Below are positions 1,857-39,911 of a stretch of DNA of 44,155 nucleotides, one piece after another. The position numbers were made by a program, and so were the translations under genes. The stretch lies in the sequence record MK931440.1; one strand, 5' to 3'. Under the pieces are notes generated by a model. The model saw only the letters and a program-made list of their open reading frames with translations. It did not search any database and was not told the DNA's origin. The stretch comes from Escherichia phage Shashou. The stretch's first letter is position 1, and the number at the start of each line of letters is the position of its first letter.

Positions 1857-3326
1857 ATGTTAACTATGAACGGTCAGAATCAGGGTGTTAAGACAAAACA
1901 CCGGGAATGGCTGCATCACTTTGATAAATGGCAGAAGGTGCGCCATGCGCTGGAAGGCGACCTTATCCGTTACCTGCGTAACGTCGGGAAGAACGAGCCT
2001 GACCCGACTTACGCCGCCCAACGCCAGGAGGAATACGAGAACGGCGCTATCTGCTACAACTTCACCAAGCGCACCCTGTCGGGTATGGTCGGCTCAGTTA
2101 TGAGAAAAGACCCTGAGCAGATTATTCCTCGTGAACTGGAGTACCTGTTACGCAATGCCGACGGTTCTGGTGTTGGCCTGTGGCAGCACGCGCAGGATAC
2201 GCTGATGGAGATTGACTCAGTAGGCCGTGGTGGTTTGCTGGTTGACGCCCCGGAAACAGCCGCAGCAACGGCAGCCGAACAGAACGCCGGATTATTAAAC
2301 CCGGTCATCGCATTCTACACCGCAGAGAACATCATCAACTGGCGACTCACTCGCGTAGGCTCGGTTAACCGCGTCACGATGGTAGTGCTGCGCGAGGTAT
2401 GGGAGTATTCAGAACCTGGTGCGGAGTTTGAAACCAAATTCGGCGAACAATACCGCGTTCTCGACTTGACTGATGGCCGCTACCGCCAGCGCATATACCG
2501 TTTCGATGCCGAAGGTGGTGCGCAGGGTGATGTAAAAGAAATCTTCCCGGAACTGGGCGAACAGTTGCGCGGAAAAATCCCATTCACGTTTATTGGTGCG
2601 AGTAATAACGACGCGACGGTTGATGACGCACCTTTGCTGCCGTTGGCAGAACTCAATATCGGACATTTCCGCAACAGCGCAGACAATGAGGAATCTAGCT
2701 TCGTCGTAGGTCAGCCTACCCTGTTTATCGCCCCAGGCGAGAATATGAGCATGGAGCAGTGGAAAGAGGCCAACCCTCACGGCGTGCGCATGGGTTCACG
2801 TTCAGGCCACAACATCGGCTACGGCGGCAACGCGTTTCTGGTTCAGGCCGGGGAGAATAACCTCGCCAAACAGAACATGCTGGACAAGGAGAATCAGGCC
2901 ATCCAGATCGGCGCGCAGCTTATCACGCCTACCCAGCAAATCACCGCTGAATCCGCCCGCCTGCAACGTGGTGCCGATACTTCCGTAATGGCGACTATCG
3001 CGCGTAACGTAAGCATGGCGTATACAGAGGCGCTGCGCTGGGTAGCTGCGATGCTGGGCCTGCGCGAAGGTGTGGAAATTGAGTTCAAGCTGAATATGGA
3101 GTTCTTCCTGCAACCGATGACTGCGCAAGACCGTGCGCAGTGGATGGCGGACATTAACGCCGGTTTACTTCCTGCAACTGCTTACTACGCCGCGTTGCGT
3201 AAGGCCGGGGTAACTGACTGGACTGACGAGGAGATTACAACGGCGATTGAGGACGCACCTGTGCCGTTAGGTGCTGTTACTCAGGTAGCTGGTGAGATTC
3301 CGCAGTCGGCGCAACAGCAGGAGTAA
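1857..3326 (+). CDS. portal protein
   Basis: 489-aa ORF directly after terminase with RBS aagagga; size and position typical of siphovirus portal. Confidence 0.75.
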   Translation: MLTMNGQNQGVKTKHREWLHHFDKWQKVRHALEGDLIRYLRNVGKNEPDPTYAAQRQEEYENGAICYNFTKRTLSGMVGSVMRKDPEQIIPRELEYLLRNADGSGVGLWQHAQDTLMEIDSVGRGGLLVDAPETAAATAAEQNAGLLNPVIAFYTAENIINWRLTRVGSVNRVTMVVLREVWEYSEPGAEFETKFGEQYRVLDLTDGRYRQRIYRFDAEGGAQGDVKEIFPELGEQLRGKIPFTFIGASNNDATVDDAPLLPLAELNIGHFRNSADNEESSFVVGQPTLFIAPGENMSMEQWKEANPHGVRMGSRSGHNIGYGGNAFLVQAGENNLAKQNMLDKENQAIQIGAQLITPTQQITAESARLQRGADTSVMATIARNVSMAYTEALRWVAAMLGLREGVEIEFKLNMEFFLQPMTAQDRAQWMADINAGLLPATAYYAALRKAGVTDWTDEEITTAIEDAPVPLGAVTQVAGEIPQSAQQQE

Positions 3327-3329
3327 AGG

Positions 3330-3356
3330 AAAAGGCCCTGTTATGGGGCCTTAGTT
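3330..3356. terminator. bidirectional hairpin terminator between portal and minus-strand moron
   Basis: aaggccc-loop-gggcctt flanked by A-run and T-run. Confidence 0.5.
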
Positions 3357-3878
3357 TTATTTAAATCGTGCGGGTATTAGCACCATAAATGCTGAGTTTG
3401 AAAATGATATTTTGCAACCTCTGGTTTGATCCTGGAAATCGAAACGAGCAATTACATTTTTGTATGCCTTAGAAATCTTGTACGCGTCAGCTAAATACTG
3501 CATAGCGAATCCTATACTATCAACCGCACCTGGCTCGATGCGCGCCACGCGCCTCCAGTCAGGAAAGTTTCCGTCTACAACATCTACCGGAAGTGTACAT
3601 ATAAGAGAACGACTATCGTCATAGAAGGAAACACTGCCGTTGGTATGGTTCACCTCCGCGTAGTTAAATTTAGATGGTTCTCTACCTTTGATGTCTATGA
3701 GAATCCCCTTCTCAACGTTTGTCTTCACATTGTCACAGAACAATCTACGACCATCCGTAGACACTATCAATCCTTCCGGGTCTATGTAAAAAGCGTTCAA
3801 ATAGTAGCGCGCATCATTTTTAGCCCTGCAGATTTTCGCCCCTACATACGCAGGGAAAGTAATAACGGTAGTAATCAT
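3357..3878 (-). CDS. hypothetical protein (AT-rich moron, opposite strand inside head module)
   Basis: Start taken at internal Met22 of track ORF 3357..3941, preceded by AGGAGG RBS; markedly lower GC than flanks; own promoter and flanking hairpins. Confidence 0.55.
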   Translation of the reverse strand: MITTVITFPAYVGAKICRAKNDARYYLNAFYIDPEGLIVSTDGRRLFCDNVKTNVEKGILIDIKGREPSKFNYAEVNHTNGSVSFYDDSRSLICTLPVDVVDGNFPDWRRVARIEPGAVDSIGFAMQYLADAYKISKAYKNVIARFDFQDQTRGCKISFSNSAFMVLIPARFK

Positions 3879-3905
3879 TTTATGCCTCCTGTTTAAGTTA
3901 ACTGA

Positions 3906-3934
3906 ATAGTACCCTATTATATTGGTGTCTGCAA
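3906..3934 (-). promoter_or_regulatory. promoter TTGCAG-N17-TACTAT (minus strand) with palindrome AATAG-tacc-CTATT
   Basis: Read on minus strand; palindrome at 3905..3918; drives moron 3357..3878. Confidence 0.45.
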
Positions 3935-3978
3935 ATATCATTTTTATGCGTTACACTGACACCACTACAGGAGGGCAT

Positions 3979-5022
3979 ATGAGCTTACTAACATCATTAA
4001 TCAGCCACCAGATTTGGCTGCAACGCACCGCATCCGGTGAAGTGAAGGACCTCACACCATTCATTCAGGAGATGCGAGATGAAATCAAAAGGCAGGTGCT
4101 GTTGTTCGGCGACGACGGGCGGAGCACAGCGCGTCTGAATAAACTATTGCGCGACCTCGAGGAAGCACTTACCGGGCTAACCGGCGACTGGCAGACTAAG
4201 CTGACAGAAGACCTTAAGGAGCTTGCAGCGTATGAGGCTGAGTGGAATGTGAAGACACTCACGGCTAACGTTAATGCGGAATTTGTTACCCCGACCGCTG
4301 AACAGGTGTGGTCCGCCGCCGTGTTTCAACCACTGGCGCTAAGCGAAAAGCCCGTTGACTTCACGAAGCTTATGGAAGGCTGGGGTGAAACGGAAGTAGC
4401 TCGCCTCGTTACCGGCGTTAAGATGGGCTTTGTGCAGGGCCGGACAACACGACAGATTATCAAGAGCGTTGTTGGCAACGGTGGGCTATCGGATAAATCA
4501 GCCAACAACGCCGCCGTTGTAATCCGCACCGCTCTTTCACACGTATCTAACGAAGCCCGTAACGAGACTTATCGACAGAACAGTGACATCATCGAGAAAT
4601 ACGAGTGGGTATCCACGCTTGACAGTCGTACCAGCACAATCTGCAAGGCCAGAGACGGCATGACGTGGGGAATCGGTAAAGGCCCTATGCCCCCAGCCCA
4701 TCCGAATTGTCGAAGTACCACAGCACCTGTAATCAGTTCAGAGTTCTATTTCCTTGACGCGGGCGCAAAACGTGCGGCTAAGGGGGCAGATGGAGGTACA
4801 CAAGTTAGCGCGGATACCACTTATTATGAGTTTCTGAAACAGCAACCAGCGTGGTTTCAGGACCAGGCGTTAGGCCCGGTGCGCGGTAAGATTTTCCGCA
4901 ACAGCGGTATATCGCCGGAAGAGTTTCGCGTAATATCTGTAGATGGTTTCGGGAATCCGCTCACGCTTAAGCAGATGGCGGAACTCGATAAACGTGTTGC
5001 TGATTATCTGAAAGGGGAATAA
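3979..5022 (+). CDS. head morphogenesis protein (Mu F / SPP1 gp7-like)
   Basis: Start at Met20 of track ORF with RBS ggaggg; position after portal; size typical of minor capsid/morphogenesis protein. Confidence 0.65.
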   Translation: MSLLTSLISHQIWLQRTASGEVKDLTPFIQEMRDEIKRQVLLFGDDGRSTARLNKLLRDLEEALTGLTGDWQTKLTEDLKELAAYEAEWNVKTLTANVNAEFVTPTAEQVWSAAVFQPLALSEKPVDFTKLMEGWGETEVARLVTGVKMGFVQGRTTRQIIKSVVGNGGLSDKSANNAAVVIRTALSHVSNEARNETYRQNSDIIEKYEWVSTLDSRTSTICKARDGMTWGIGKGPMPPAHPNCRSTTAPVISSEFYFLDAGAKRAAKGADGGTQVSADTTYYEFLKQQPAWFQDQALGPVRGKIFRNSGISPEEFRVISVDGFGNPLTLKQMAELDKRVADYLKGE

Positions 5023-5483
5023 TGATGGGCTTTTTCAAAGTAACTGATGTACCTTCGCGCCGTGTTGTCCAGTACGCCCGCGTGTCAGGCTCCGGCGAGA
5101 ACGTGACCTACGTTGAAGATGAAAGTGTACTGGGTACACCTGTAGACGAGATGCCGTATGCAGATAAAACTGGTATCGCCATCACGGCGGCAGGTATGCT
5201 TTACGAGATTCCGTATCTGGAAGACGCAGGTGACGTGTACTTCTCCGTGCAACCGAAAGACGCGGAACTGGTAGACGGAAGCGCGGTAATCACGGTAGAA
5301 GTTAAGGCGTATAAAGCACCATATTCGCTGACCTGGTACAAAGACGGGAAGGAAGTCGTTAACGCACCAGAAGAAGCTTTGTCTCTGACGGTTAACGCTG
5401 CAGGCGAATACTTCGTTAAAGTTACTGATGCCGATGGTGTAGAGGCTGTGAGTAAAGCGGCGAAGGTTACTAAGCCGGAATAA
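5022..5483 (+). CDS. Ig-like domain protein (putative virion surface/decoration)
   Basis: C-terminal SLTWYKDGKEV...GEYFVKVTDADG resembles Ig-like fold signature; paralogous to 8219..8560. Confidence 0.55.
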   Translation: MMGFFKVTDVPSRRVVQYARVSGSGENVTYVEDESVLGTPVDEMPYADKTGIAITAAGMLYEIPYLEDAGDVYFSVQPKDAELVDGSAVITVEVKAYKAPYSLTWYKDGKEVVNAPEEALSLTVNAAGEYFVKVTDADGVEAVSKAAKVTKPE

Positions 5484-5486
5484 ACT

Positions 5487-5510
5487 AAAGCCCCGAAAGG
5501 GGCTTTTTAG
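5487..5510 (+). terminator. intrinsic terminator
   Basis: aagcccc-gaaa-ggggctt followed by TTTT. Confidence 0.65.
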
Positions 5511-5571: not shown

Positions 5572-5600
5572 GTTGACTTTTCACTAAAAATGTGCTAAGC
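5572..5600 (+). promoter_or_regulatory. sigma70-like promoter TTGACT-N17-(TGc)TAAGCT upstream of spanin/scaffold/capsid genes
   Basis: -35 and extended -10 with 17-nt spacer; near-identical copy at 37502..37530. Confidence 0.5.
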
Positions 5601-5800
5601 TCCACCTGAGCTTGTGAAGTATGAACAAGCGACCGCGGCGCGGGCAGGTAACGGAGCGGGACGTAAGTCCTGAGTGTAGTTACGCTGACGCGTTCGGAAG
5701 GGCCATACTCTATTGCTTGTGTAAAAAGTAACTGGTTTACTGAGATTACGCCGTTTCTATGTTTAAATGATAAGGACTAGCGCCCAGCTTTAAGGCTGGG
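5601..5800 (+). ncRNA. candidate noncoding leader/small RNA (copy 1)
   Basis: No ORF; conserved 41-nt 5' element with hairpin gcttgt-N9-acaagc shared with 37531..37571; ends near hairpin cccagc-tttaag-gctggg about 5771..5793. Confidence 0.3.
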
Positions 5801-14215: not shown

Positions 14216-14256
14216 GGTGTAGCTCCTGTTCGAGTTAACATTGTTGGTGTAAGTGA

Positions 14257-14285
14257 ATAGTATCCTATTATGTTGGGGTGCGCAA
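14257..14285 (-). promoter_or_regulatory. promoter TTGCGC-N17-TACTAT (minus strand) with palindrome AATAG-tatc-CTATT
   Basis: Palindrome at 14256..14269; region is reverse-complement homologous to 37799..37835; drives Imm-like/phosphoesterase operon. Confidence 0.5.
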
Positions 14286-14393
14286 GTAATGTGATAGAAT
14301 AATTTTGCGCCTAGTGTCGCACACGAAAAGCGGGTGGTTCCCGTCTGGCGCATTTACCATTAACCTGTAACCTCTTAACCAAAGGATTAAAGA

Positions 14394-24750: not shown

Positions 24751-24888
24751 CTACTCTTCGGATAACTTCTCCAGTACAAACGCCAGTTGCGCATTAGCGG
24801 CGTCTCTCTGTTGCCGTAGTCGTAGAACCTCTTCTTCGAGTTCCTCGATACGTTTTTGCAATGCCGGAATTGGGGCTATGATGTTCAT
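24751..24888 (-). CDS. small coiled-coil protein (45 aa), hypothetical
   Basis: ATGA overlap with helicase stop; heptad-like IEELEEEVLRLRQQ; ends at terminator; not in ORF track. Confidence 0.4.
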   Translation of the reverse strand: MNIIAPIPALQKRIEELEEEVLRLRQQRDAANAQLAFVLEKLSEE

Positions 24889-27350
24889 TTCTTACCTCGT
24901 CTCTTCATGTAATTAAGCAATTCTTCCTGTACAGATTTCTTCTCGTCGGTGCGCGCGGCAACAACCTCATCCAGCGTGTCTTTAGCGACGATGTGATAGA
25001 GGAACACCGGGCGCTCGTGTCCAGCCTGTTTCTGACGAACAGGGCCTATGCGCTCGACAACCTGCAAATAGTGCTCGAGGTTCCATCCCTGACTTATAAA
25101 CGCCAGATGATGCCCTCCATCCTGTAAATTCAAACCATGGCCGGCTGACGCGGGATGAACACATAAGATTTCGATTTCACCACGGTTCCACGCTTCCATC
25201 TGCTTATTACCCTTAGCTCCTTTGGCAAACGCCTTAGCCTGCGGGAATCGCTTAAGTATGCGCTCCAGTTCGTGTTTAAACTGATAGGCCACCAGTAACG
25301 GCGCGCCCTGCAACTCCTCAACAATGGACTCCAGTGCGTCCAGTTTCGTGTCATGCACTTTCTCCCAGTCTTTCGTTGCTTCGCCATCTGGCCCTGATAC
25401 ATACACGGCACCGGACGCAATCTGGAGACACTTTGATGTCTTCGCTGCCGCGTTAGCGGCTTCAACTTCCCCGCTCTCGAGTTCCGCAAATAACTTCTCC
25501 TCCATATCGATGTACGCCTGACGCGCTTTCTTCGGCAGGTCTATTTCAACAGGAACGATAATCGGCGCTTCGCAACCGAACCACTCTGCAGCATCGATAG
25601 TGAGACTGATATCCTTCATCTTCTGATGAATCTCGGTATCCGCGCCCGGGCGAGCGTGATACTCACGCGCCATAGCCGATTTGCCTTTCTGTATCGAATT
25701 AAACCAGCGGTCGGTAAACGCCGTATACGAAGAACCAAGTCGCTCGCCTGCGTCTATAAACCAGTTCTGCCCCCACAAGTCTTTGAGGCCGTTTGGTGAC
25801 GGCGTACCGGTCAGGTTGATAAAACGCTTAACCTTACCAAACGCCACTTTACTAAGCGCCTTTGCTCGCTTGCTGCCACCAGAACGGCTGCGGAACGATT
25901 TAAGCTTCGTGCTCTCGTCGGCAACGATAACTGTGAAAGGCCAGTCGTCTTTGCCGTAGTAGTCAATCAGCCACTCGATAACTTCGTAGTTAGTGCACAC
26001 CACGTTAGCGTCGGACTCAAGCGCCGTGATGCGGCGCTTCTCCGAACCGGTCGCATCTACTACACGCAGGCACGGGAAACCCCAACGTGCCTGTTCCGCG
26101 GGCCACGTGCCAGACGCAACACGCAACGGGGCGAGGATTAACACGCGGTCGTCGTCATTAAGTTGCCCATTACGGAACAGGCGGTTGAGAACCCACAACG
26201 TTGAGCTTGTATTGTGCGTGACAGTGAAGTCCCCCAATAAAAACCTACTGTCACCGTCGATAGTGAAGCCGAAATAATCATCTACGCCGACCGGGGTTAT
26301 GGATTCTATACCAACGTTAAGCACGTTCTTATTAATATTACGCTTCGGTAAATTCTGGTGGCGTCCTCGCACGAAAGGTACCTCAGAAAAATCGCCAGAT
26401 ACCGACACACGGAAGTAGTCACCCCAAACATCAGTGTTTGCGCAACGCTTACGAGTTTTCTTCTTGTAAGCAGCAAAACCAAGAGAACGGCATAGATAGC
26501 AAAAATCATCAGCAAGTCGCTCGCTTACCGAAATCCAGTCAAAACCCGCTTTAGACAAATCGCAGTAACCATCACTATCCAGAAGCCCCGCCAGCAATTC
26601 TAACCGCTGTCGCCGGTCGCCGCATTTGTAACTATGCGGTATATGCTTATTGTTCAGGACACCCGCCGATTTCAGCGCGTGCGTAAACCCGTGCTTCTTA
26701 TGACCTGTGTTGCCGTAAGATATACTCCATGTAAGTCCTTCTTTTCGTATTTGCATCCCATTACGTGCTGCGTACGACTCAAGATAAGCCCTTATTTCCT
26801 TTTCGTTCTCTCCTGATGTTATGGCCCCCGACGACGAAGTACCGTCACCCAGCCATAACCCCATAAGGTACGGAGGCAATAAAGCCTCGTCCTGCTCTTT
26901 CCTTGTAAAATCGACAGGTACCCGCCAACCCTTAAGATACCCATTAGGTCCGGTTACATATTTCGGCAACTTAAGCCAGTCGCGGACGCTTATGTCGAAA
27001 ACGGTATTATCTGGCCATGAACCTTTTGCAATCCCTGTAGTAGTTCGCAGGGATAATATATGGCTTTCGTTGACCGTATACGACTCTCCTTTTCGCGGTT
27101 TAACCTCGTACATCATCTCCCGGCCTCTACCGAGAGACAGTACATTTCTAGGCGTTGAATCCGGCCCCATAAGCACGTCACCGACGATGACGTCTTCTAC
27201 TTTCTTGGTCGTACCGTCAAACATAATAACTTCCGTCCCGCGTTTCAGGCACTTGCCGCTGCCCATACTAGCCCAGATATTGCAACGTGGGTGCTGTAAC
27301 ATAAACGACGTCATTATTTTCTGGTATTCCCTGCGCCTAAATTTACTCAT
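24885..27350 (-). CDS. SF2 (SNF2-like) helicase interrupted by an intein
   Basis: Walker A split as MGSGK | intein | TSSTLW; DExx box VIVADEST; C-terminal helicase motifs incl QVVERIGPVRQ. Confidence 0.8.
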   Translation of the reverse strand: MSKFRRREYQKIMTSFMLQHPRCNIWASMGSGKCLKRGTEVIMFDGTTKKVEDVIVGDVLMGPDSTPRNVLSLGRGREMMYEVKPRKGESYTVNESHILSLRTTTGIAKGSWPDNTVFDISVRDWLKLPKYVTGPNGYLKGWRVPVDFTRKEQDEALLPPYLMGLWLGDGTSSSGAITSGENEKEIRAYLESYAARNGMQIRKEGLTWSISYGNTGHKKHGFTHALKSAGVLNNKHIPHSYKCGDRRQRLELLAGLLDSDGYCDLSKAGFDWISVSERLADDFCYLCRSLGFAAYKKKTRKRCANTDVWGDYFRVSVSGDFSEVPFVRGRHQNLPKRNINKNVLNVGIESITPVGVDDYFGFTIDGDSRFLLGDFTVTHNTSSTLWVLNRLFRNGQLNDDDRVLILAPLRVASGTWPAEQARWGFPCLRVVDATGSEKRRITALESDANVVCTNYEVIEWLIDYYGKDDWPFTVIVADESTKLKSFRSRSGGSKRAKALSKVAFGKVKRFINLTGTPSPNGLKDLWGQNWFIDAGERLGSSYTAFTDRWFNSIQKGKSAMAREYHARPGADTEIHQKMKDISLTIDAAEWFGCEAPIIVPVEIDLPKKARQAYIDMEEKLFAELESGEVEAANAAAKTSKCLQIASGAVYVSGPDGEATKDWEKVHDTKLDALESIVEELQGAPLLVAYQFKHELERILKRFPQAKAFAKGAKGNKQMEAWNRGEIEILCVHPASAGHGLNLQDGGHHLAFISQGWNLEHYLQVVERIGPVRQKQAGHERPVFLYHIVAKDTLDEVVAARTDEKKSVQEELLNYMKRRGKK
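26211..27251 (-). mobile_element. intein with LAGLIDADG homing endonuclease domain (about 347 aa)
   Basis: Begins with Cys after GSGK, ends THN followed by Thr; LAGLIDADG-type motifs LMGLWLGDG and LAGLLDSDG; excision restores GSGKT. Confidence 0.75.
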
Positions 27351-37501: not shown

Positions 37502-37530
37502 TTGACTTTTACTAAGAAATATGGTAAGCT
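37502..37530 (+). promoter_or_regulatory. sigma70-like promoter TTGACT-N17-(TGg)TAAGCT
   Basis: Paralog of promoter at 5572; followed by the same conserved leader. Confidence 0.5.
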
Positions 37531-37790
37531 CAGCCTGAGCTTGTGAAGTATGAACAAGCGACCGCGGCGCGCGGCAGGCGAAACGAGCACGTGTAGCGTG
37601 TGGAGTGAGGCTCGCTAGCGCGTTTGGGAGGCCCCAAGTCTATTGTAATTCCAGCCTAAGTAGCTAAGTTACTGATTTGCCGTAGGTTAGAACCGCCAGC
37701 TCACTCACTCACTCTTGGTGCCTTCGGCACCACGTTCGTTTCGTTTCGCTCGCTACCCCCTTAAACGAAAGAATCACAACGGCAACGTAA
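37531..37790 (+). ncRNA. candidate noncoding leader/small RNA (copy 2)
   Basis: No ORF of 60 aa or more; same 5' element; contains UUCG-loop hairpin ggtgcc-ttcg-gcacc and short tandem repeats. Confidence 0.3.
37699..37754 (+). repeat. short tandem repeats (ctcactcactcactc; cgtttcgtttcg) flanking a tetraloop hairpin
   Basis: Direct repeats visible in the noncoding region between divergent operons. Confidence 0.5.
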
Positions 37791-37798
37791 CTAATCTC

Positions 37799-37827
37799 TT
37801 GCACACCCCAACATAATAGGATACTAT
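37799..37827 (+). promoter_or_regulatory. promoter TTGCAC-N17-TACTAT with palindrome AATAG-gata-CTATT
   Basis: Palindrome (37815..37828) overlaps spacer and -10; drives 37862 gene block. Confidence 0.5.
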
Positions 37828-37861
37828 TCACTTATCGAAACGAGACAGAGGAGTGAGGGCT

Positions 37862-38791: not shown

Positions 38792-38941
38792 ATGGTTACT
38801 TTGATGATTATGGAGTTCGAAAACAGCGCTGCAACTTACCGCGAGATGACTATGGCGCAGGCGTACCACCTGGCTAAACACAGCAACTTCTACAAGGCTC
38901 AAATCATTAATGAGTTTGGGGTAATTGACTATGAATTTTAA
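38792..38941 (+). CDS. small hypothetical protein (49 aa)
   Basis: RBS gagaggagagg downstream of promoter 38732..38760; not in ORF track. Confidence 0.4.
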   Translation: MVTLMIMEFENSAATYREMTMAQAYHLAKHSNFYKAQIINEFGVIDYEF

Positions 38942-39203
38942 CAGCTACACCGTGACCGTTGATTTTGAGGGGCTGGAGTTGCCCCTCCCTAACAACTACC
39001 GGTACATAACGCGCGATAGTAATGGGTTTATTCAGGGGTGGAAGAACAAACCGACGGATACTGAGTTCGGGATGTCAGGAGGAGAAGAGTTGCCGGTCAC
39101 TTTCGGGCATCAGAGTAGCAATGGAGAACTTAAAACGGTGATTCGTAAGTATCGTCGCCGCGATAACACCGGGCTTATCGCAATAACAGGCGCTGTTGAA
39201 TAA
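38931..39203 (+). CDS. hypothetical protein
   Basis: ATG at Met3 of track ORF. Confidence 0.45.
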   Translation: MNFNSYTVTVDFEGLELPLPNNYRYITRDSNGFIQGWKNKPTDTEFGMSGGEELPVTFGHQSSNGELKTVIRKYRRRDNTGLIAITGAVE

Positions 39204-39222
39204 GCGAGAGGAGAGACAGAAG

Positions 39223-39711
39223 ATGAGTAACAAAAACGAAGTATTCGAGTACCTGATTGACCAACTACGGCAGCAGGTAAATAGCAACCCGTACAAGCAA
39301 CAGTGCGAAGACCTGGCGCACGAGGTGTTGTCACTCAAGAATCAGTTACGTGATGCGTCAGAACATATTAAGGAGTTGCATAAGGCGTTGGCTGCAGCTA
39401 CGGGTGACGTAGGCGCTTATATAGCAGCAGAGCAATCTGGTTGCCGTAAGGAAGATACTCAGTACAACGCCTGGAGGCCGCATTATGGTGCACGACAACC
39501 TGTGCCGGATGGGACTATGGTATTTATCCGGTATCGCAACGGGGAGGAGCTGAAACACAGTGTAGCAGCAGAAAAGAGGTTGTGGATTTGGGATGGAACA
39601 TACGCAGACATAGTGGAATACAAGATTGACACACAGGAATGCGAGCACAATTGGTTATATAGTAAACACAAAAGTGGCTTCGTTTGCTTTAATTGTGGGG
39701 CGCGTAAGTAA
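39223..39711 (+). CDS. hypothetical protein with C-terminal Cys/His cluster
   Basis: Start at Met10 of track ORF with RBS gagaggag; C-terminal CEHNW...CFNC. Confidence 0.5.
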   Translation: MSNKNEVFEYLIDQLRQQVNSNPYKQQCEDLAHEVLSLKNQLRDASEHIKELHKALAAATGDVGAYIAAEQSGCRKEDTQYNAWRPHYGARQPVPDGTMVFIRYRNGEELKHSVAAEKRLWIWDGTYADIVEYKIDTQECEHNWLYSKHKSGFVCFNCGARK

Positions 39712-39911
39712 TGACCAGCGTCCTATTTATATGGGTACTGTACGCAGGCCAGTTACAACTAGCGGCAACAGAAACGTTTTACTCACTGGATGCGTGCCAG
39801 GCTGCGGCACGCAACGCAGAGAACGCGCACTTCCTGTTTCAGGATAAGCCGATTGATACTGAGGTGCGCGCGACATGTTCAACGAAACGATTAGCTAAGC
39901 AGGAGAAATAA
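39711..39911 (+). CDS. hypothetical protein with hydrophobic N-terminus
   Basis: Stop-start overlap; N-terminal VLFIWVLYAGQLQLAA. Confidence 0.45.
   Translation: MTSVLFIWVLYAGQLQLAATETFYSLDACQAAARNAENAHFLFQDKPIDTEVRATCSTKRLAKQEK

Follow-up and report, generated by a model that had tools for sequence, protein, structure and literature searches.

A truncated beta-clamp homologue that keeps the client-docking pocket is carried on a mobile cassette in the head module of Escherichia phage Shashou

The beta clamp (DnaN) is a central hub of bacterial replication and repair, and its cleft is the docking site to which host polymerases, the clamp-loader subunit delta, Hda, MutS/MutL and others attach through clamp-binding motifs. 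The clamp is also an antibiotic target via the same pocket. In the sequence of Escherichia phage Shashou (MK931440.1; 44,155 nt, the whole of which is referred to here as the window) we analysed a minus-strand gene at 3357..3878. Its product of 173 amino acids (aa), with a mass of 19.5 kDa and an isoelectric point (pI) of 8.9, is a truncated DnaN homologue made up of domain II and the C-terminal half of domain III, and is called the mini-clamp below. We put at about even the chances that this protein is a free docking pocket, off the ring, which captures host proteins bearing clamp-binding motifs and travels on a mobile cassette. The mini-clamp region was 100% identical to that of Escherichia phage Sciku (MK931439.1; Kagunavirus, Guernseyvirinae), and as the window is 99.9% identical overall to the Sciku record, gene-level remarks naming Sciku apply to the window as well.

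A shortened clamp has reportedly been described before. The beta* protein of Skaliter, Paz-Elizur and Livneh (1996), a UV-induced product of an internal start in dnaN that comprises domains II-III, is said to oligomerise and to act as a processivity clamp. It is reportedly truncated at the N-terminus and starts near the beginning of domain II, as does the mini-clamp, whose start corresponds to about DnaN residue 130; beta* is said to keep all of domain III, whereas the mini-clamp also lacks DnaN 254-311. Full-length phage beta clamps and T4 gp45 are complete rings that operate with loaders and phage polymerases, and the short class of 163-250 aa is structurally distinct from them. Gp168 of phage Twort (PDB 7EVP) is comparable as a phage protein acting on the host clamp system, but it has a different fold and plugs the DNA channel of the clamp, whereas the mini-clamp is a copy of the client pocket (PMC11139829). 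MuC of phage Mu likewise exploits clamp-client docking (PMC12867686), with the roles reversed: MuC has the motif and docks on the host clamp, and the mini-clamp has the pocket, to which host motifs would bind.

The mini-clamp is clearly a DnaN homologue by sequence, and a clamp fold of one and a half domains was predicted for it with high confidence. A profile of 90 family sequences matched E. coli DnaN with E=7.8e-35, positions 8-120 of the profile aligning with DnaN 137-253 and positions 121-179 with DnaN 312-366, and a profile search of PDB returned exclusively full-length beta clamps, with E down to 1e-29. The AlphaFold2 (AF2) model made with the 90-sequence alignment reached a predicted local distance difference test (pLDDT) score of 97.2 and a predicted template modelling (pTM) score of 0.91, as against a pLDDT of only 70 for an earlier model from a shallow alignment. 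Because the Foldseek alignments were 254-271 columns long for a query of 173 aa, the mini-clamp was concluded to skip about 60 residues relative to full clamps. Many phage proteins of 163-250 aa in BFVD had the same short fold, with template modelling (TM) scores of up to 0.87 to the model. The preliminary description, made from the nucleotide sequence, had not recognised the protein and had suggested a remote-homology search and structure prediction; both were run and gave a beta-clamp homologue, which had already been annotated as such in GenBank (the counterpart, CPT_Sciku_004, is labelled 'DNA polymerase III sliding clamp' on an HHpred match).

What the mini-clamp retains of the clamp was seen from a comparison with E. 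coli DnaN (PDB 1MMI/2POL). Its residues 1-117 correspond to DnaN ~130-253 (domain II) and its residues 117-173 to the last half of domain III (DnaN 312-366), which includes the stretches IGFxxxYL and IPAR in Sciku (IGFNxxYL and MPxR in the family consensus). Along with the homologous fold, the two proteins share the cleft residues R152, L155, T172, G174, P242, Y323, P363 and R365, the motifs RYYLNG, TDGxRL and DGxFPDxRRV, and a C-terminal PxR (MPxR in most members, IPAR in Sciku). Unlike DnaN, the mini-clamp has less than half the length, is basic where DnaN is acidic, and is encoded on a mobile cassette of a phage whose replication module can do without it. It has neither domain I nor DnaN 254-311, the first half of domain III, and in the predicted model domain II is short of its second inner helix. 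The dimer interface of DnaN consists of I78, F106 and R103 in domain I and of I272, L273, E298 and E304 in domain III (PMC11139829). As both of these segments are absent, the normal two-subunit ring is impossible for the mini-clamp, and a quarter-ring arc consisting of domain II and the last beta-alpha-beta-beta-beta half of domain III is predicted with high confidence.

The mini-clamp thus belongs to the clamp superfamily, with which it shares sequence homology and the beta-alpha-beta-beta-beta clamp fold, but it departs from a DnaN sliding clamp in the features that define one (domains, interface, cut-offs and replisome role). In place of three domains (~366 aa) scoring above curated cut-offs it has one and a half domains in 173 aa, and both segments of the head-to-tail dimer interface are gone. 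Nor does it behave as an essential replisome part working with a loader and a polymerase: a loader is not annotated, and the gene is absent from phage K1G and present in phage ZCKP8. In NCBIfam only TIGR00663 (dnaN) was hit, at a sub-threshold 15.1 bits (cut-off 137.65), and a Pfam scan of the mini-clamp returned no family even at E<=10, the clamp families PF00712, PF02767 and PF02768 included.

The alignment indicates that the family selectively conserves the clamp-binding cleft between domains II and III. In a review, 18 residues were listed for the clamp-binding-motif pocket of DnaN (PMC11139829), and all 18 had an aligned counterpart in the mini-clamp. By alignment, the pocket with its subsites I and II is present, and ten of its positions were kept in at least 80 of the 90 family sequences: R152 (88), L155 (85), T172 (84), G174 (89), H175 (80), P242 (90), Y323 (80), M362 (87), P363 (81) and R365 (81). 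Nine columns were near-invariant in the family, eight of them pocket residues (hypergeometric P=2e-8), and the mean conservation was 0.75 at pocket positions and 0.36 elsewhere.

We propose that the mini-clamp probably captures host replication or repair proteins and does not encircle DNA. Because it cannot be a ring, it would act as a free competitor or adaptor. Its free pocket would bind host clamp-binding-motif proteins away from the ring, and would either compete with the real clamp for clients, as a decoy, or redirect those clients to phage DNA, so that its function would be an accessory one in replication or host takeover. Since the interaction of host Pol III with beta is needed by many carriers, selective titration would be expected, with no block of the replisome. 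Weak and transient clients would be titrated more readily than the multiply tethered Pol III core, which would explain why the protein is tolerated by phages that rely on Pol III of the host. Candidate clients would be clamp-loader delta, Hda, MutS/L, translesion polymerases and RecBCD. Delta may be considered among them because of its preference for monomeric beta, which it binds ~50x more tightly than the dimer (PMC11139829), and RecBCD was reported in a preprint (10.1101/2025.08.20.671105) to bind the clamp directly.

Several points weigh against this proposal. The Sciku allele is off-family at four pocket positions, where H175 is replaced by R44, N320 by A125, M362 by I168 and M364 by A170; these departures also distinguish it from relatives that are 85-88% identical. 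They fall mostly on subsite II and bridge positions, and the LF-anchoring subsite I is nearly intact, its only departures being H175 (R44) and M362 (I168), both of which bridge the two subsites. The changes may reflect an altered ligand specificity or a relaxed constraint at subsite II. Furthermore, the pocket is the best-conserved part of real DnaN too, and its conservation could partly be a constraint of the fold. Conserved lysines K20 and K134 lie on the channel-facing helices and the pI is 8.9 as against 5.25 for DnaN; judged from the basic pI and these lysines, contact of the mini-clamp with DNA is possible. Finally, an indiscriminate competitor should harm lambdoid and T1-like carriers, for which contact between host Pol III and beta is a necessity, and the effect must be selective, mild or positive.

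The mini-clamp gene lies between the portal gene (1857-3326, plus strand) and an SPP1-gp7-like head-morphogenesis gene (3979-5022, plus strand). The preliminary description had placed an opposite-strand open reading frame (ORF) of 174 aa in this part of the head module, of which position and orientation stand and the length is to be corrected to 173 aa. A longer reading of 194 aa from the ATG at 3941 was ruled out, as, upstream of about -57, copies from the other insertion site have an unrelated sequence. The GC content of the ORF was 42.7%, compared with 50.1% for the genome, 55.3% for the portal gene and 52.5% for the head-morphogenesis gene; it was the minimum among the 28 coding sequences of at least 400 nt and within the lowest 2.1% of 522-nt genome windows, in agreement with the AT-richness relative to the flanks noted earlier. 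The preliminary description had stated that the proposal would fall if the ORF were not conserved as coding in relatives. This objection does not apply: all 12 Kagunavirus copies kept 173 intact codons, with a median pairwise dN/dS of 0.13, and the gene is under purifying selection.

Two of the expression signals named in the preliminary description, a strong ribosome-binding site and a hairpin terminator at the 3' end, were found again. The ribosome-binding site AGGAGG (3885..3890, minus strand) stands 6 nt upstream of the ATG at 3878 and is annotated in the Sciku record, and its AGGAG was kept in 12 of 12 copies. The hairpin AAGGCCC...GGGCCTT (3332..3352) is flanked by T-runs on both strands and is read as a bidirectional intrinsic terminator that serves the portal gene on the plus strand and the mini-clamp gene on the minus strand; it was taken as functional because its stem was constant across the 12 Kagunavirus copies while the loop varied freely. 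For the promoter the evidence was divided. A promoter-like block (3902..3935, minus strand) offers a candidate -35 TTGCAG (3929-3934), a 17-nt spacer and a candidate -10 TACTAT (3906-3911), a combination that agrees with the consensus at only 7 of 12 positions and stays under the threshold of the consensus scan, which called no site upstream of the ORF. The block was, however, kept at both insertion sites (A and B, described below) and before four unrelated cargo ORFs, and it occurs once in the window and twice in genomes with both slots filled. The candidate was retained only because of this comparative conservation, which makes a mini-clamp promoter plausible. The operator that the promoter was said to bear was rejected, since the sole palindrome, AGTTAACT (3896..3903), is 8 bp long, was intact in only 8 of 12 copies and is probably not significant, such palindromes being expected by chance at ~0.4 per 100 bp. 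TATAAT at 3916-3921 was also rejected as the -10; it is a perfect match without a -35 and reads CATAAT in 5 of 12 copies. On the plus strand of the same block (3893-3920), TTAAGT, a 16-nt spacer and TATTAT point toward the head-morphogenesis gene, and the block may hold two promoters back to back, the divergent one of which would start rightward transcription anew past the cassette terminator.

The gene is carried on a mobile cassette of 606 bp (3330..3935, minus strand) inserted at site A, which separates the portal gene from the head-morphogenesis gene, with flanks that match K1G. The cassette was 89% identical to a segment of phage Snoke, where the copy sits at site B, flanked by the Ig-like decoration gene and the spanins. 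In the window site B (5489..5508) is unoccupied, and the Ig-like decoration gene is followed there by the native terminator hairpin AGCCCCGAAAGGGGCT. At both insertion sites the cassette hairpin GGCCCC-loop-GGGGCC stands in for this native hairpin. In K1G the two sites measure only 84 bp (A) and 39 bp (B). Among nine IMG/VR relatives the cassette was at site B in eight and at site A in one. Site A of four site-B phages held other small AT-rich minus-strand ORFs of 71, 106, 59 and 61 aa (L007 5040-5420, L008 5041-5566, L012 5040-5395 and L013 ~5100-5360), each lying, like the mini-clamp gene, between the upstream block (ATATTTGCAGACACCAATATAATAGGGTACTATTCAGTTA) and the hairpin; the four ORFs are different, and only that of 106 aa had a PHROG match (phrog_3972, function not assigned). 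These comparisons indicate a conserved slot for leftward expression, made up of the promoter-like block and the terminator, in which the cargo can be exchanged. The recurrence of the block before different cargos is the best available support for its being functional, although the block could also act as an anchor for recombination. By megablast the cassette was present in only ~1/5 of matching Guernseyvirinae records. A recent capture from E. coli or a prophage origin was rejected, as the cassette DNA had no match in 5,426 E. coli genomes.

The lambdoid morons of Hendrix and colleagues are said to be extra, compositionally distinct genes with their own promoter and terminator, found between conserved late genes in some relatives only. 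The mini-clamp shares this layout of an inserted, compositionally distinct and patchy gene, and the term moron used in the preliminary description is apt in a structural sense: the cassette is a discrete, AT-rich, opposite-oriented unit with its own terminator and a promoter-like block, and a survey of related phages, as had been recommended, found it at site A, at site B or, in K1G, absent. The promoter-terminator frame differs from that of lambdoid morons in being a slot with exchangeable cargo. In addition, neither an integrase nor a repressor is listed in the annotation of the Sciku record; for this reason the classical sense of a prophage-expressed gene would not apply, and the carrier phage appears virulent, so that no lysogen would profit from the gene.

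The head module of Kagunavirus relatives is rich in mobile elements. Inteins were seen in the Sciku helicase (window 24885-27350, minus strand) and in the head-morphogenesis gene of Snoke (L003 1179-3038) and of the relatives L005, L006 and L009. The intein-bearing head-morphogenesis genes adjoin the cassette sites in Snoke and several IMG/VR relatives, and several HNH endonuclease genes are also present. Just right of the empty site B lies the first copy of a 78-bp direct repeat (5573-5648 and 37502-37578 of the window, 91% identical), and a 37-bp inverted repeat (97%) connects 14250-14286 with 37798-37834. Both distant repeats lie in intergenic or early regions and may be shared regulatory elements. 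Beyond its 99.9% identity to the GenBank record of Sciku, the window has ~1 kb extra at 38849-39868, which carries ORFs at 38925-39203 (92 aa, phrog_1972) and 39196-39711 (171 aa, phrog_6094), both function-unassigned; coordinates of the Sciku record past ~38.8 kb are not transferable to the window.

By tblastn the mini-clamp gene was found in 228 phage records, including Kagunavirus, Jerseyvirus, Dhillonvirus/SO-1, Skatevirus, T1-like Klebsiella phages, Bcep781, and Vibrio, Aeromonas and Shewanella phages. The profile search gave 375 cluster representatives (50% identity) at E<=1e-10, with 147 of the best 150 no longer than 255 aa, and at least 500 mini-clamp loci were found on IMG/VR viral contigs with a 14-sequence sub-alignment as query. 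Dhillonvirus TheodorHerzl and Burkholderia phage Bcep781 (gp15, annotated 'Pol III b subunit fragment') have it as a lone opposite-strand gene in the head module. In Skatevirus LPST10 (L021 1812-4001) and in the Klebsiella phage ZCKP8 (L025 20946-23243) it comes last in an opposite-strand island with a ParB-like gene, the LPST10 island additionally holding an annotated anti-restriction gene, and on IMG/VR contig L064 (3167-4534) a ParB-like gene is in the same operon. Of the 80 distant loci examined on viral contigs, 27 (belonging to 3 of 15 clusters at 80% identity) had the order CII, mini-clamp, O-like initiator, P-like loader/DnaB-like helicase; this is how the replication operon begins in lambdoid phages, which rely on Pol III of the host. 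Other orders were ParB-like, mini-clamp, helicase, and anti-repressor, mini-clamp, and a plasmid-borne relative sits in a prophage-like early operon. This replication and early-operon context in other phages points to replication-related host manipulation. The family phrog_1273 was rejected as a recurrent partner, since Sciku lacks it and no more than 2 of 15 clusters have it.

Other explanations have to be weighed against the capture of host clients. The mini-clamp could be a genuine sliding clamp or processivity factor, perhaps in an unconventional ring such as one of four quarter-ring subunits, in which four arcs of one and a half domains would sum to six domains. DnaN homology, the clamp fold, the retained polymerase-tethering pocket, and the basic pI with conserved lysines on the channel-facing helices agree with such a role, and the gene is annotated in this way both in GenBank and in PMC9825357, where the gene of phage fBC-Eco01 was described as a beta clamp holding the polymerase on DNA. 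We nevertheless consider it unlikely, as the protein has 173 instead of 366 aa, the loss of domain I and DnaN 254-311 (with I272, L273, E298 and E304) makes the known interface impossible, the second inner helix of domain II is gone from the model, and the scores (15 bits against 137.65 for TIGR00663, no match in Pfam) are not those of a clamp. The genetic evidence points the same way. K1G has no mini-clamp homologue anywhere in its genome, and its polymerase, helicase, SSB and exonuclease are 89-99% identical to their Sciku counterparts, so that the protein is dispensable with the same replication module; the T1-like phage ZCKP8 has a homologue and no annotated DNA polymerase. A second clamp fragment was not found in Sciku, a clamp loader is not in its record annotation, and the gene lies outside the replication module on a mobile cassette. 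The mini-clamp is accessory and mobile, not a core part of the replisome. The description in fBC-Eco01 is an inference at the level of annotation, and the anatomy of the mini-clamp does not support such a role, given that K1G is without the gene, only ~1/5 of records carry it, ZCKP8 is without a polymerase and ring parts are missing; a literature search on the function of the short clamp class found annotation-level statements only. Still less credit, and in our view hardly any, can be given to a functionless, decaying fragment of a captured dnaN, as the wording chosen by the Bcep781 annotators would have it, or to a RusA-like Holliday-junction resolvase, the label of the best PHROG match (phrog_3007, E=2e-33; weaker matches were to 'processivity factor' families). 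Purifying selection and the fold effectively refute both: dN/dS was 0.13 and the length invariant at 173 codons, the same architecture recurs in hundreds of diverse clusters, DNA similarity to the 5,426 E. coli genomes was not found, the RusA domain of Pfam (PF05866) is absent, and the fold is that of a clamp. A genuine RusA (phrog_140, PF05866) neighbours the mini-clamp in locus L065 (3558-3920) and may be the origin of the mislabel, which is widely carried in the family (e.g. NC_054645.1 gp37, NC_071150.1 gp48), evidently via the PHROG label.

The pocket could also serve partners other than the replication and repair clients of the host. An adaptor that binds a phage-encoded partner (an initiator, a helicase loader or a ParB-like protein) and builds a phage-specific replication or partition complex would suit the co-transcription with O/P-like replication genes in lambdoid contigs and the recurrence beside ParB-like genes (Skatevirus, ZCKP8, L064). 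In L073 the CII-like neighbour directly upstream (3642-3983) ends in ...SQIDMHF, which resembles a hexameric clamp-binding motif; this end comes from a crude ORF call, and the CII-like neighbours in L098 and L084 do not share it. We hold such an adaptor to be improbable, because clamp-binding motifs were at chance level both in the 75 neighbour proteins (6, against 4.7 +/- 2.2) and in the Sciku proteome (6, against 3.6 +/- 2.1), in the latter with none in replication proteins or at termini. A neighbour family common to all contexts was not found (phrog_1273 being confined to the two clusters mentioned), and the pocket residues equal those of the host clamp, as expected for host-type motifs. 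There is, lastly, a slim chance that the mini-clamp is a specific anti-defence protein whose pocket disarms a clamp-docking host nuclease or defence factor such as RecBCD, for which clamp binding was reported in the preprint 10.1101/2025.08.20.671105. Like many counter-defence genes it is an accessory gene on a mobile, AT-rich cassette in a variable cargo slot, and the opposite-strand island that holds it in LPST10 also encodes an annotated anti-restriction protein. The PADLOC scan, whose library consists of defence and not anti-defence proteins, returned no family at E<=10, and the commonest conserved context elsewhere is the replication-initiation operon and not an anti-defence island. A host-interaction or anti-defence function had been suggested at the outset; host interaction is plausible through the conserved clamp-client pocket, whereas nothing specific to anti-defence was seen and the context in other phages is that of replication and early operons.

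The gene had already been annotated, and the function label is probably wrong. The labels in use for the family ('Pol III sliding clamp', 'DNA polymerase' and 'RusA-like resolvase') are probably misleading and are spreading, for example in phage-therapy genome papers. The slot in Kagunaviruses is a convenient place to seek further accessory genes. Whether a soluble pocket decoy that titrates clamp clients amounts to a previously undescribed mechanism of host takeover or counter-defence, present in hundreds of phage lineages and held in a plug-in slot, is a more tentative matter than the capture of clients as such, and we put it forward as a possibility that is open to considerable doubt. If the capture of clients is true, a widespread family (228 phage genomes and at least 500 contigs of viruses) would compete naturally for clamp clients by means of the pocket alone, and the mini-clamp would be usable as a tool to dissect the clients that matter in infection. 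The family would then represent a new class of phage host-manipulation protein.

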